A stretch of 64,000 nt of DNA from an uncultured Chlamydiales bacterium (GCA_963700985.1 OY969554.1:448001-512000); one strand, 5' to 3'; counted from the first letter of the stretch, positions 16,490-28,774 are shown. Notes: generated by a model from the letters alone, not told the origin. Numbers and translations: made by a program.

Positions 16490-18046
16490 ATGAGTATCTC
16501 AAGATTGTCAGCATTGATGACCGCCGCGAATGACATAGAAGCTTTTAACCAAGTAGACCGCCCATACCTAATCGCGTCTCCTTTGGAAGGTTCAATTCAT
16601 GTGGCTCAAGTGGATTCTGAGCAGTTTCCAGCGAATGATCAAGTTGCCAACTTAAATTGTCTGCTCGATAAAACGATCGCAGAGCTCGCCTCCACATCTT
16701 TAAAAACCAGGCCGATTTCTGACTATAAAACATTCGAGAAAGTGATTGCTCTATGCGGTAAACTCCTCAAGAAAATCCCTGCCGCTGAAGCGACAAGCGA
16801 ACAGTTAAAGGAGCTCAAGTTTAAACTTCTTAGCGCTAAATGTGGCGGTCTAGTTCCTTGGACAGTTTTCAGAGATAACGCAGACTTCCGCAAATTTATT
16901 GAAGTTAACTTCTTGCAAAACATGCTGACAGCGTCGCATATGCAGCTGATAATGGATGAAAATGGCCAGCCTTGCATTCCTATTGGGAATGTCTCTAAAG
17001 AAGACGGCAGGGTAGAAGTGGTAGCAGATCAGCCTGCGACACTAAACATCGCTTGGAATCGCCTGGAAAAAACTGAAACTCCTACTGGCTATAACTTTTC
17101 AGTCGATGGTGTGACGCTATTTAAGACAAGCGCAGATTATGAGCTCGATTATTATGCATACTCTTTCAATCACTTGGGCGTGATTCCTTATTACGTCAAA
17201 GATGCTCAGGTATTGAATTTTGATCAGCGCGATCCACGTGAGTGGCAAAACAAATATGTTCTAGAACTCTGGACTGCCATGGTTGATAAATCTGGTTTCC
17301 AGATTCAACCCTGCGTGGGCGACCACTCTTATTTAATCTTACGCGACGGCCAAAATGGTAAGATCTATTCAGTTGGGCAATTCGGCGTAAAGCGCGACTA
17401 TCGCTGGTATGACTATCTAACTCCTCTTTCTCGCAAGAGCTCTGGATTAGAGTCTCCAGATCGTTATGTCTATATGCCCAAGGGTACTTACAATCTACAG
17501 ATGGTTGAAACTGAGTTGGACAAGGAGCAATTTGAGGGTATTTTAGCGCGCTGCGAAGCAAATAAAGGCGACAAAGATTACTCATTTTCTCTGTTAAAAA
17601 AGAATTGCACGAGCTGGGCAGTTCAGCTGGTGAATGAAGAACTTGGTATCAAGTTAGATCCTTCTTTGCAGAGTTTAAGCTTTGTCATACGTCAGATTCT
17701 TCCGACCTCTTGGCAGAAGCTCTTTTATGCATTTTTAGATAGAACATTTGGTCAACTACCATCTTGGTTGCAACATGCATGCTATTTCTTTCCGGTAGTT
17801 TATGCCTTATACCTCCCACTTGCACTGCTGGCGAAATCTATCAGTACGGGCAATAAAGGGGGCATTAGTGATCTTCCTTGGCTTGATATTATCTTTAGAC
17901 CTTGGAATACTTTCGTCGATCATCCGGCCTCGCTGCGTCAGAACCTATGGGCTCAAGATGGGAATGGAGACGTCAGGTTAGGTGAGAAACTATATCCTGA
18001 CTCGCAGGCCACTGGAACGCTAACTAATCATAAAATTAAACAATAA
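16490..18046 (+). CDS. Family A1: permuted papain-like (LRAT/PPPDE-type His...NC) enzyme with C-terminal hydrophobic hairpin
   Basis: LELWT...GDHSYLIL...IYSVG...SPDRY...FSLLKKNCTSW; paralog of 20906, 22606, 26966. Confidence 0.6.
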   Translation: MSISRLSALMTAANDIEAFNQVDRPYLIASPLEGSIHVAQVDSEQFPANDQVANLNCLLDKTIAELASTSLKTRPISDYKTFEKVIALCGKLLKKIPAAEATSEQLKELKFKLLSAKCGGLVPWTVFRDNADFRKFIEVNFLQNMLTASHMQLIMDENGQPCIPIGNVSKEDGRVEVVADQPATLNIAWNRLEKTETPTGYNFSVDGVTLFKTSADYELDYYAYSFNHLGVIPYYVKDAQVLNFDQRDPREWQNKYVLELWTAMVDKSGFQIQPCVGDHSYLILRDGQNGKIYSVGQFGVKRDYRWYDYLTPLSRKSSGLESPDRYVYMPKGTYNLQMVETELDKEQFEGILARCEANKGDKDYSFSLLKKNCTSWAVQLVNEELGIKLDPSLQSLSFVIRQILPTSWQKLFYAFLDRTFGQLPSWLQHACYFFPVVYALYLPLALLAKSISTGNKGGISDLPWLDIIFRPWNTFVDHPASLRQNLWAQDGNGDVRLGEKLYPDSQATGTLTNHKIKQ

Positions 18047-18070
18047 CTAAAAACAACCTGGGTGTAATTT

Positions 18071-26900: not shown

Positions 26901-26965
26901 TTGTACATATTTTTTCCTGAGTTGGTTAAAATTGATCATATTTATTGTTAAAAGGTGATTTAGAG

Positions 26966-28774
26966 ATGGCAACACGTCCTTTTTCGATTGAACCTCACTG
27001 TTTCGATGGCTTAAGCCATGGGCAATATCTCGCTTATGACGCCCAAACGCATCATTTCTATGCTTCATTCGTGGATGATGCAGAACAAAATTCTGAAGTT
27101 GCTGAAGCAGTTAAATCACATCTTTTTACGTATAATAAAGATGGTGGTGCTCTTACTGAGGATCTGCAGAAGCTGCATCAGTGCGCTTCCAAGTTTTTAG
27201 ATCGTCAAAAATCTCTGCACAGAAGCGAACTTGATAAAGGTTTAGCGGGTTGTAAAGATTCCTCTCATTTAATGAATTTAGAGATGATCGACCGTCTGGT
27301 TGTCGCCTTTACGTTTCAACAAATTAGTCCTGAAGATTTTAAGCAGATGGCTTTAGATCGGATCATGCGGACATTCAAGACCAAAGTTGCAAGAGAGCAG
27401 CTGCAAAAGTGGTTTAGCGAGCCCACACACCGTGCTTCAAAAGAAAAAGCGCGTGAAATGGCTAAACAATACCCGAAACATCCCGATTTTAAAAATGAAG
27501 GGGTTTTCAACGATCGAACCGAGGCGGCACGCGCCTTTGCTTTACATCCGGCTCAAGTGCAATTTGTTAAAGATCATTTTCTTGAGAAGCATGTCGGCAC
27601 GCGCAATGGGGACAGAATCGAAGTTGATCCAGAAACTAAAAACCTCAAGATTAAATTCAATGGAGTGATGCGTTCTGTTGTTGACATTGAACGCGACCAC
27701 ATTTCTGAAAGGCATCGCCTCTATGAACGAGTGCATACCGAAGGCAGTGAAGGAGAAACTCGCGGCGCGCGCCTTTTCTATAAAGACAAGCTTGGACTTG
27801 TGCCGTGTAGTGAGGAGAATCCAGCTTTAGCCGATCCGGAACAATTTCAAAATGCAATCCCGCTCTTTAAGAAGAAAGAAAAGCGTAACCATCAAGACTT
27901 CCGTTTAGAAGTTTGGACAGCGATTAAGTTGGACGAACAGCATATGCACGGATTTATCGGGTTGAAAACTCCAACTGGTGAAGTGCGCCACGTAGGCTTT
28001 TTTAGAAGAGAAGGAGAAGAGAAGCCCATTTTACGGCTTATGGAGACTTCAAGAGGCGATTTCCATGCTGATGGCGACAGATATGACTTCATGCGTTTTG
28101 AGCCTTTCATGAAGCGTACCTCGATTGCGGTCACTGAAGATCAATATAACCGCGCCTATGGGTATCTACTGGATCGGCAAAAAGATGAAGTTAACCGCAA
28201 CTTCAATGTAGCGAATCAGAACTGCACCGACATCGTGAATGAAACTCTGCATGCAGCGCTGGGAATTGAGCTTCCAGTGGAGTCATCTCTTTTTGACATC
28301 TACCTCGGCTTTGATCTCAAAAACAACTTTTTTGTGAAATATATTCCACCCGTGCGTATTGCAGCATTTATTGTATGTGCTGTGCTTTCGGTTCTACGTA
28401 ATATGCTCATGCTGATCATTGGTGGTGCATTTTCAGGCGAAGAAAATGAGCGAACTTTTGGATCTTTCTGGGAGATCTTCAATCCAAATGCTGGTCGCCT
28501 CCATCACCCCAGTATGATAAGACGCTGGCAAGATAAGGTTGAACAGTTGCGCTCTAAAAAGATCGACGAGATTACAATTCGCTTCGATGAAGAACTTGAA
28601 GCTGCGGATGGCGATCAATACGAAGCAGTCTTGAAAGAAAAAGAGAAGCAGATCCACATTATTAAAACATCAATTCCTCAAGAAGCGATTCCGCGTAAGC
28701 ACTCCTTTTGGTGGAATTTCTTGGATTTCTTCTGGTCTCTTTCCGACGAAGAGAGCGTCATTCCCGTCCCTTAA
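26966..28774 (+). CDS. Family A4: divergent permuted papain-like paralog
   Basis: LEVWT...HMHGFIGL...G...VGF...DRY...FNVANQNCTD, hydrophobic segment, HHP. Confidence 0.55.
   Translation: MATRPFSIEPHCFDGLSHGQYLAYDAQTHHFYASFVDDAEQNSEVAEAVKSHLFTYNKDGGALTEDLQKLHQCASKFLDRQKSLHRSELDKGLAGCKDSSHLMNLEMIDRLVVAFTFQQISPEDFKQMALDRIMRTFKTKVAREQLQKWFSEPTHRASKEKAREMAKQYPKHPDFKNEGVFNDRTEAARAFALHPAQVQFVKDHFLEKHVGTRNGDRIEVDPETKNLKIKFNGVMRSVVDIERDHISERHRLYERVHTEGSEGETRGARLFYKDKLGLVPCSEENPALADPEQFQNAIPLFKKKEKRNHQDFRLEVWTAIKLDEQHMHGFIGLKTPTGEVRHVGFFRREGEEKPILRLMETSRGDFHADGDRYDFMRFEPFMKRTSIAVTEDQYNRAYGYLLDRQKDEVNRNFNVANQNCTDIVNETLHAALGIELPVESSLFDIYLGFDLKNNFFVKYIPPVRIAAFIVCAVLSVLRNMLMLIIGGAFSGEENERTFGSFWEIFNPNAGRLHHPSMIRRWQDKVEQLRSKKIDEITIRFDEELEAADGDQYEAVLKEKEKQIHIIKTSIPQEAIPRKHSFWWNFLDFFWSLSDEESVIPVP

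Follow-up and report, generated by a model that had tools for sequence, protein, structure and literature searches.

Permuted papain-like enzymes linked to GT28-like glycosyltransferases in Chlamydiales: a conserved A-B-A' trio and a candidate lipid-remodelling module

The stretch of DNA dealt with here—64,000 nucleotides (nt) from an uncultured Chlamydiales bacterium (GCA_963700985.1, OY969554.1:448001-512000), referred to below as the window, with positions counted from its first letter—carries six co-oriented genes at 16490-28774 of the plus strand, which code for two kinds of protein, named here A and B. They are arranged as A1-B1, A2 and A3-B2-A4 beside a tRNA-Leu gene and raise the question of whether the two kinds of protein belong together and what they might do jointly. 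An earlier note, made from the sequence of the window alone, regarded the array as a two-gene A-B operon, duplicated and diverged, that codes for enzymes with a permuted papain fold and for glycosyltransferases resembling MGDG synthase. The present analysis points to a different unit, a trio consisting of an A protein of type I, a B protein and an A protein of type II (A'), of which the array represents a lineage-specific occurrence.

Genes of the array and predicted folds of their products

The first gene, A1 (16490-18046, 518 amino acid residues, aa), identified as a type I permuted NlpC/P60 enzyme by its open reading frame (ORF), its AlphaFold2 (AF2) model and its place in the A tree, is followed after 24 nt by B1 (18071-20740, 889 aa), a GT28-like GT-B glycosyltransferase according to the ORF call, the AF2 model and a profile match. 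A terminator-like hairpin located after B1 (20767-20791, plus strand; a 10-bp stem with five GC pairs and a T-rich tail) lies in the gap of 165 nt before A2 (20906-22435, 509 aa), a type I paralog with 39% identity to A1, and a further 170 nt separate A2 from A3 (22606-24147, 513 aa), also of type I and 44% identical to A1, which ends 19 nt upstream of B2. The latter, a paralog of B1, is read in two frames that overlap, 24167-24991 (274 aa) and 24858-26900 (680 aa), the long part exhibiting 39% identity to B1 (E 9e-154) and the short one 36% (E 2e-31). After 44 nt the array is closed by A4 (26945-28774), a type II permuted NlpC/P60 enzyme of 609 aa when started from TTG—the first ATG is found 21 nt further on—that shares only 17% identity with A1; His279 and Asn372-Cys373-Thr374 are nevertheless invariant among A1-A4. 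The layout is thus the one described in the earlier note, i.e. six co-oriented genes next to tRNA-Leu, A-B gaps of about 20-25 nt, a terminator after B1, paralogy within the array and no signal peptides, since no hydrophobic N-terminus was found by Kyte-Doolittle (KD) hydropathy in A1-A4, B1 and the first part of B2. It should be pointed out that the scan gave 20 terminator-like sites where shuffled sequences gave 12.8 +/- 3.2, and that its promoter-like sites did not exceed chance (23, as compared with 23.1 in shuffles); only the hairpin at 20767-20791 has therefore been used.

The frame break of B2, positioned near 24966-24975 in this assembly, is an assembly error or a strain variant and not good evidence of gene decay, because contigs of two public runs, X1 and X2 (depths 3.2 and 2.7), omit one letter at 24966, and this omission, by frame arithmetic, brings both parts into one frame. 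Both runs are soil metagenomes from a single study, and the sample from which the window comes may be among them. The beginning of B2 (24167-24400) contains a Ser/Pro-rich low-complexity stretch absent in B1, in agreement with a variable, disordered N-terminal region in the B proteins.

Concerning the A proteins, an alignment of 47 of them served as the input for the AF2 model of A1 (predicted local distance difference test, pLDDT, 93.3; predicted template modelling score, pTM, 0.91), which consists of a helical domain (residues 1-153), a beta-rich domain (about 160-250) and a catalytic domain (about 250-509). The best solved match of the catalytic domain is TseH (6v98; Z 11.3, root-mean-square deviation, rmsd, 3.6, with 149 of 183 residues aligned over 250-509); the exhaustive structure comparison gave, further, YiiX (Z 7.1), the Bacillus YiiX-like protein 3kw0 (6.5) and DeSI 2wp7 (6.4) and, lower, Aichivirus 2A (6.0), MARTX RID 5xn7 (5.9), CLN5 (5.7) and PLAAT4 (5.6). 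PLAAT4 and AdPLA (Z 4.7) are matched over A1 residues 256-384, with no LRAT/PLAAT match at the level of sequence, and Foldseek alone was weak on A1, its best hit being TseH again (E 0.038). His279, Gly296, Asp324 and Cys373 are invariant in all 47 aligned proteins and Asn372 is present in at least 90% of them; in the A domains of the B loci, both domains of the fused proteins included, the His, Gly, Asp and Cys are kept in 44 of 44 and the Asn-Cys pair in 42 of 44, and A4 keeps the His, the Asp and the Asn-Cys. The catalytic His precedes the catalytic Cys in the chain, which is the order of a circular permutation. By their predicted fold and their His/Cys pattern, the A proteins are circularly permuted NlpC/P60 (papain-like) enzymes, as proposed earlier. 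Each of them also contains one 19-residue hydrophobic segment after the catalytic Cys (KD 1.46-2.38), which is a helix at about 430-448 in A1 and is situated at about 474-492 in A4 (hydropathy 2.38).

The sub-threshold Pfam matches among the 47 A proteins, all of them weak, concern Lnb_N/DUF4105 (eight proteins, best E 3.1e-4), PPPDE (three) and RTE1 (one). A1 itself reaches 13.5 bits against PPPDE (E 0.068; cut-off 29.2), and the fused relatives exhibit PPPDE matches with E 0.0023 and 0.01, sub-threshold as well, as are the matches to the TseH family. No domain shared by A and B was found when their profiles were compared (probability 0.2%).

The AF2 model of B1 (pLDDT 83.9, pTM 0.85) starts with a disordered N-terminus (1-61), continues with a helical domain some 340 aa long (about 62-400) and ends in a GT28-like GT-B domain (about 430-876). 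The GT-B domain is superimposable on MGD1 4x1t with Z 19.6 (rmsd 2.7, 304 of 321 residues aligned; 18.9 for another MGD1) and on MurG with Z 18.0 and 16.4, and Foldseek also relates B1 to MGD1 (E 1.8e-8). At the level of sequence, B1 and B2 have no Pfam match at E <= 1 and B1 as a single sequence has none in the PDB at E <= 0.01; the profile built from 25 B sequences finds UgtP 9wde (E 1.1e-36), MGD1 4wyi (E 3.1e-32) and MurG (E 6.3e-8). The motifs of B1—GGAH449, D587, K787-x-G-x-x-T-x-x-E795 and W813-E-x-x-N817—recur as GxGH, D, KxGxxTxxE and WExxN in nearly all of 46 B-like proteins, B1 and the long part of B2 among them, and the B motifs align with GNGH, KPGGITLTE and QEKEN of UgtP; the His of the Gly-rich loop is the residue that we take to be the catalytic base in MGD1. 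The similarity to MGDG synthase seen in the earlier note is therefore well founded, the B proteins being a distant GT28 subfamily and not an equivalog: B1 scores 46.7 bits (E 2.1e-12) with the NCBIfam equivalog of diglucosyl-diacylglycerol synthase, for which the cut-off is 500. The solved GT28 relatives matched, i.e. MGD1, UgtP and MurG, use membrane lipid acceptors, and neither the profile nor the structure comparison found a protein glycosyltransferase family scoring better for B than the lipid ones. The helical domain of B1 (taken as 62-420) yielded, among look-alikes in a language-model atlas, noise-level rows resembling phage Mu F at 0.82 and no recognised family.

The A-B-A' trio across Chlamydiales

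In order to describe the surroundings of B, 40 B-like loci were fetched in two batches of 20. The first batch contained 11 loci picked for adjacent A1 and B1 matches plus nine loci with a long B and no A1 match; of the latter, a profile search located an A no more than about 3 kb away in eight, and the ninth was cut by the contig end. In the second batch, composed of other B-like matches with ORFs of at least 560 aa, A genes are nearby in three of 20 loci and none occurs within the fetched flanks of the remaining 17. The linkage of A and B in other genomes, on which the earlier note had staked its proposal, is thus seen as adjacency in several chlamydial families and, beyond that, as natural fusion. 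Single-ORF A-B-A' proteins of 1805, 1774 and 1806 aa (L067, L068 and L069) are encoded in three lineages, belonging to the families f12, f32 and f17, and three lineages (families f1, f9 and f23) possess an A gene followed by a B-A' fusion of 1365, 1243 and 1408 aa (L072-L074); there are also further representatives of 1793-1804 aa with two A stretches.

The evolutionary tree of A, calculated by a quick search under LG+G4, is based on 62 catalytic domains: the B loci contributed 43, and 18 of the 29 loci with A only or with an A1 hit contributed the other 19. Left aside were duplicate loci, L012, L017, L021, L035 and domains without the catalytic region. It splits at a single starred branch (support 99) into two types. 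Type I covers all 19 solo genes, the eight of eight genes located upstream of B, the three of three N-terminal domains of the fused proteins and A2 of the window, whereas type II gathers the six of six C-terminal fused domains, six downstream genes, 18 divergently placed genes and one more distant one, A4 being among its members. A1, A2 and A3 form a starred clade of three rows, and A4 clusters with the A' domains from the C-terminal part of fused proteins (supports 98 and 99, both starred). It follows from the two types and their fixed positions around B that the conserved unit is the trio A(type I)-B-A'(type II), present as separate genes, with B and A' fused, or as one polypeptide of ~1800 aa. 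A3-B2-A4 is a full trio, and A1-B1 with A2 is a variant composed of type I copies only. Because the A type to which A4 belongs is separate and branched off long ago, duplication of a two-gene unit does not by itself account for the array, and the A-B operon proposed earlier has to be replaced by the trio with its two old A types.

The tree of B was prepared from the glycosyltransferase domains of 46 rows, with fragments of < 300 profile positions excluded, namely the split B of G340, the weak 413-aa match in L106 and the short part of B2. Its starred side of 33 rows holds all 25 rows linked to A, whereas its starred side of 13 rows holds none, and the linkage label changes four times over the tree against 15.2 times in shuffles. 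The dependence is one-sided: B of the linked clade is rarely without A, whereas both A types occur widely without B. The pairing put forward in the earlier note has accordingly held for B of this clade, which is tied to A, and not for A, which is much commoner than B and mostly found without it. A complex prediction for A1 (100-518) with B1 (320-889), run with alignments and without controls, returned a score of 0.00 twice, which counts neither for nor against an interaction.

Four loci (L090-L093, from G198, G230, G025 and G067) code for proteins of 884-1046 aa that match nearly the whole B profile, the helical domain included, and have no A in the fetched flanks. Type II A-like genes are located on other contigs of several of these genomes (G025:C33, G067:C4, G230:C2 and C20), so that the A-B partnership may persist there in an unlinked form.

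As far as the distribution is concerned, whole-genome searches covered 400 genomes of a phylum sample and, at the level of the order, an even sample of 150 genomes from 110 genera, with genome G005 unscored. Sequences similar to A1 are present in 49 of the 400 genomes and those similar to B1 in 110, the latter mostly as the C-terminal glycosyltransferase half of short proteins of 400-600 aa. All genomes with a match are labelled with the same order, family or genus, and the named members come only from metagenome-assembled genomes (MAGs) of Chlamydiia and Waddliaceae, where they are annotated as hypothetical proteins. An exhaustive search of 1.84 billion representatives with the A profile retrieved 1094 clusters at E <= 1e-3, 410 of them at E <= 1e-30. 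A word-index homolog search found, beyond the proteins of the window itself, one foreign relative for A1 and one for B1; a search for related loci found nothing with a fused protein as the query and, with a B protein of family f1, five MAG loci titled Verrucomicrobiae and Acidobacteriota, titles that are unhelpful for taxonomy. The A family expands repeatedly and independently of B. Several genomes, such as G299, G025, G064 and G411, contain 4-7 A-family matches each, often in tandem (G064:C10, G414:C138).

A separate arrangement is found in lineages of family f30 that have A and no B, where a paralog of 358-412 aa lies immediately ahead of the full-length type I A gene and in the same orientation. 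It matches A1 over residues of about 6-360 alone and stops short of the catalytic Cys, which makes it a truncated companion copy. Its coordinates are L013:2862-3935 (-), L014:2962-4167 (-), L015:149-1381 (+), L019:92-1327 (+), L024:198-1322 (+), L030:2850-3983 (-), L033:2808-3947 (-) and L035:2859-3998 (-), and the one copy scanned gave no Pfam family.

A variable site between tRNA-Leu and ExbD

The array is a lineage-specific island at a variable site, bordered on the left by tRNA-Leu(tag) (16162-16245, minus strand; ARAGORN) and on the right by a conserved ExbD gene. The flanks are syntenic in two congeners, G112 and G031, one flank being made up of ADH, an aminotransferase and tRNA-Leu(tag), the other of ExbD plus further genes; between them, the congeners carry 3.4-4.1 kb of unrelated ORFs (L108:14188-17207, with 477, 226 and 286 aa; L109:12895-16776, with 483 and 753 aa), whereas the window has 15 kb including the array. 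No Pfam family and no similarity to the genes of the window were found for these congener ORFs. It seems that lineage-specific genes have a hot spot here. None of the three congeners yielded an A match, and their GT28-like proteins are restricted to a short gene of 425-459 aa. A comparable gene of 439 aa exists in the genome of the window itself, outside the window (L008:1444-2763, minus strand, corresponding to G000:C1 at about 1.047 Mb); it scores 22.1 bits with Glyco_tran_28_C (cut-off 22) and sub-threshold with MGDG_synth, is located on the unlinked side of the B tree and is probably a housekeeping enzyme.

B1 and B2 group with proteins of four other families and of one family-f1 genome (support 96, starred), apart from the 13-row clade composed entirely of family f1. 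Such a placement is compatible both with gene transfer, in either direction, and with differential loss. The GC content of the array (0.41-0.44) is slightly below that of the region to its right (0.45-0.48). The genome also has one FHIPEP gene, coding for the type III export gate.

The rest of the variable segment, up to ExbD, is occupied by an LpoB-like gene (204 aa) and a TPR gene (425 aa), both recognized by Pfam at 28907-30795 of the minus strand. A tblastn comparison of the two ORFs with the syntenic stretches of G112 and G031 gave no match, and the three congeners yielded no counterpart of the TPR protein. Farther to the right, two tandem tRNA-Met(cat) genes (50469-50640, plus strand) stand 22 nt apart, and the same pair ends the syntenic stretch in G112.

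Proposed function and comparison with known systems

Concerning the function, we give about an even chance to the array encoding a lipid-remodelling module that combines sugar transfer with acyl hydrolysis or transfer and is probably directed at the host; the substrates, the lipid shared by the enzymes and the secretion are what we infer, whereas the layout of the genes, their products' modelled folds, the kept catalytic residues and the repeated adjacency and fusion are what the analysis shows. B would act on a membrane surface and transfer a hexose from a uridine diphosphate (UDP)-sugar to a diacylglycerol-like lipid acceptor; A and A', by way of a thioester at the catalytic Cys, would take acyl chains off or pass them on at this same membrane, in the manner of a phospholipase A or a transacylase; and A, B and A' together would make or edit a glycolipid. 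Where one polypeptide has a lipid glycosyltransferase flanked by two enzymes of the lipid-acyl kind, the simplest explanation would be that all three work jointly on a single membrane lipid.

The vacuole in which chlamydiae live is bounded by a membrane, and they rely on the remodelling of host lipids, yet to our knowledge few lipid-modifying chlamydial effectors have been described, with next to none among the environmental chlamydiae that make up a large part of the group. A host-directed role would be likelier than housekeeping in view of the paralog expansion, the patchy distribution, the absence from congeners, the lack of Sec signals, the disordered N-terminus of B, the type III export gate gene and the chlamydial lifestyle. 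A more elaborate version, which we consider doubtful, sees A-B-A' as an effector with three active sites building an acylated glycolipid in the host or inclusion membrane: B would glycosylate a host-derived lipid, i.e. diacylglycerol, ceramide or a sterol, and the two permuted papain-like domains would transfer or trim acyl chains from host phospholipids.

The lipid-remodelling module draws in part on the relatives of A. The characterised members of the class, from bacteria, viruses and eukaryotes, have as their targets the ester or amide bonds that hold fatty-acyl groups in lipids or lipidated proteins. The S1 pocket of the permuted NlpC/P60 enzymes is hydrophobic, YiiX crystals contained a fatty acid, and LRAT and H-Rev107 belong to the acyltransferases or phospholipases (PMC3142127), whereas Tox-Act1 is a phospholipase and DUF4105/Lnb a lipoprotein N-acyltransferase (PMC12994826). 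Of six solved permuted-papain matches (TseH, DeSI, YiiX-like, PLAAT, CLN5 and RID), the last four belong to families acting on lipids or acyl groups, and TseH displayed phospholipase activity in one assay (PMC12994826). Together with the lipid acceptors of the closest relatives of B, these lipid- and acyl-acting relatives of A make the protease-plus-glycosyltransferase toxin, the alternative offered in the earlier note, less favoured.

Several observations weigh against the lipid-remodelling module. A is far commoner than B, with type II A-like sequences found by profile in 122 of the 400 genomes and A-family matches in 69 of the 150 genomes and 54 of the 110 genera across the order; as the contigs of most A copies carry no B, A can do without it. 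Conversely, eight of the 33 B rows in the linked clade are without A in the fetched flanks, three of these being located on a short contig or where a contig ends. The trees come from quick searches and have support only from the Shimodaira-Hasegawa-like approximate likelihood-ratio test (SH-aLRT), with relatives that are not independent samples, and the jackhmmer E-values for the searches in the fetched loci refer to a very small database. The A proteins lie below the curated cut-off of every Pfam and NCBIfam family, and the A profile gave only chance-level rows against the PDB sequences, the best one (E 0.025) to an unrelated enzyme; with no curated family and no solved structure reached by sequence, the family assignment relies on the predicted fold and the His/Cys pattern. 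As for the closest solved relative, the phospholipase activity of TseH, recorded on liposomes, was absent in a second assay, and TseH was first proposed as a peptidoglycan peptidase (PMC12994826). Finally, a cytoplasmic role at the membrane of the producer would fit the missing signal peptides equally well.

This last point leads to the explanation that survives best among the rivals, although we hold it to be unlikely: the array would be an accessory metabolic cassette of own-membrane glycolipid metabolism, in which B makes hexosyl-diacylglycerol and A and A' remodel its acyl chains. MGD1, UgtP and MurG, the GT28 relatives matched, are indeed active on the cytoplasmic side of a membrane that belongs to the producer itself. 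It also agrees with the missing signal peptides and with DUF4105/Lnb, the commonest sub-threshold Pfam match of A (8 of 47), which acylates the lipoproteins of its own cell (PMC12994826). A cassette of this kind is, however, difficult to reconcile with an array that is missing from three of three congeners keeping the short GT28-like gene, occupies a variable site, consists of tandem diverged paralogs (39-45% identity), has a patchy distribution across the order and codes for a B extended by the helical domain and the disordered N-terminus.

A protein-directed action, with A and A' as proteases, deconjugases (PPPDE/DeSI-like) or lysine fatty-acyltransferases (IcsB/RID-like) and with B glycosylating host proteins, appears quite unlikely. 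The weak PPPDE matches of A1, of three of the 47 A proteins and of the fused relatives speak for it, all of them being far under the 29.2-bit cut-off, and so do the structural matches to DeSI (Z 6.4) and RID (Z 5.9), above which, however, both TseH and YiiX-like proteins score. The invariant His-Asp-Cys order of A corresponds to the triad H145-D195-C306 of IcsB (PMC13059803), and the IcsB cluster came first in the language-model look-alike search (score 0.89, a lead only); this kinship is left unsupported by hhalign, in which the A profile reached a probability of 1% with IcsB over 19 columns around the Asn-Cys, a weak test owing to the single-sequence template. For B, moreover, the lipid glycosyltransferases are the nearest ones, with no protein glycosyltransferase family scoring better.

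That the proteins are cell-wall enzymes, a MurG-like transferase with NlpC/P60 peptidases acting on lipid II or muropeptides, is very improbable: MurG is indeed a strong structural match (Z 18.0 and 16.4), and both NlpC/P60 and the early view of TseH concern peptidoglycan, but the B profile matches UgtP (E 1e-36) and MGD1 (E 3e-32) better than MurG (E 6.3e-8), export signals were not found in the proteins mentioned above, the array is not conserved in the congeners, and the permuted topology goes with pockets of the lipid type and not with peptidoglycan (PMC12994826, PMC3142127). Hardly credible, finally, is the absence of any functional link, i.e. that unrelated expanded families meet by chance in variable regions, since, even with A mostly without B and no A near any of the 13 rows on the other side of the B tree, the one-ORF trio fusions in f12, f32 and f17, the B-A' fusions in f1, f9 and f23, the fixed order with type I upstream and type II downstream and the concentration of the linkage in one B clade make chance adjacency unlikely.

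Irrespective of the reading preferred, a large unannotated family of permuted papain-like enzymes has been defined (1094 clusters; 69 of 150 genomes of the order), and one clade of GT28 glycosyltransferases is tied to it by adjacency and natural gene fusion. The fusion proteins offer a ready argument for the joint action of the activities and a single construct for biochemistry. If the lipid-remodelling module is real, it would add a new enzyme combination to the few pathogen systems making glycolipids at the host interface; if it is not, the A family still needs a function, because its catalytic residues are kept in every copy examined. Each domain belongs to a known superfamily, whereas the A family, the long B subfamily with the helical domain and the fixed A-B-A' order appear to be new. 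In line with the earlier note, which did not recognise the pairing as a described system, no description of the A family or of the A-B pairing in chlamydiae was found in the literature searched, the supplementary homolog tables of PMC12994826 and PMC13059803 lying outside that search; the excerpted part of a polymorphic-toxin survey mentions chlamydial OTU and UBCH toxins and not an A-B module.

Among the known systems, the clades of TseH (a type VI secretion system, or T6SS, effector of Vibrio cholerae), Tox-Act1, DUF4105-Lnb, YiiX and LRAT share with A the permuted papain-like fold, the His before the Cys and the Asn-Cys; this class acts on fatty-acyl bonds (PMC12994826, PMC3142127), and A is placed there by its predicted fold. 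A differs from them in having no family-level sequence match, a length of 450-610 aa, extra helical and beta-rich N-terminal domains and an invariant Asp324; no T6SS or immunity-gene context was seen for A, and in Chlamydiales it is often beside or fused to a glycosyltransferase. The inverted papain-like fold and the His-Asp-Cys order are also common to A, IcsB and MARTX RID; IcsB, a type III effector, resembles A further in its about 500 aa with N- and C-terminal extra domains, whereas its Asp and Cys are 111 residues apart as compared with 49 in A1, and in the main text of the source its family is reported only from Pseudomonadota and Thermodesulfobacteriota, chlamydiae being absent from that text (PMC13059803). 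With regard to B, MGD1 and UgtP, the latter a processive diacylglycerol beta-glucosyltransferase, have the same GT-B fold, GxGH loop and KxGGxTxxE motif; B has WExxN in place of the QEKEN of UgtP and, unlike both enzymes, carries the added helical domain (about 340 aa) and the disordered N-terminus. The last comparison, with Helicobacter pylori, is an analogy of logic only, as the enzyme families of its pathway differ from A and B. There, a cholesterol glucosyltransferase and a cholesteryl glucoside 6'-acyltransferase, which are not reported in the excerpted source as a fused or adjacent module, combine lipid glycosylation with acyl transfer to give an acylated glycolipid acting on host membranes (PMC7069968). 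The logic of the three-active-site effector would resemble this cholesteryl acyl-glucoside pathway, with unrelated enzymes brought together in one module.

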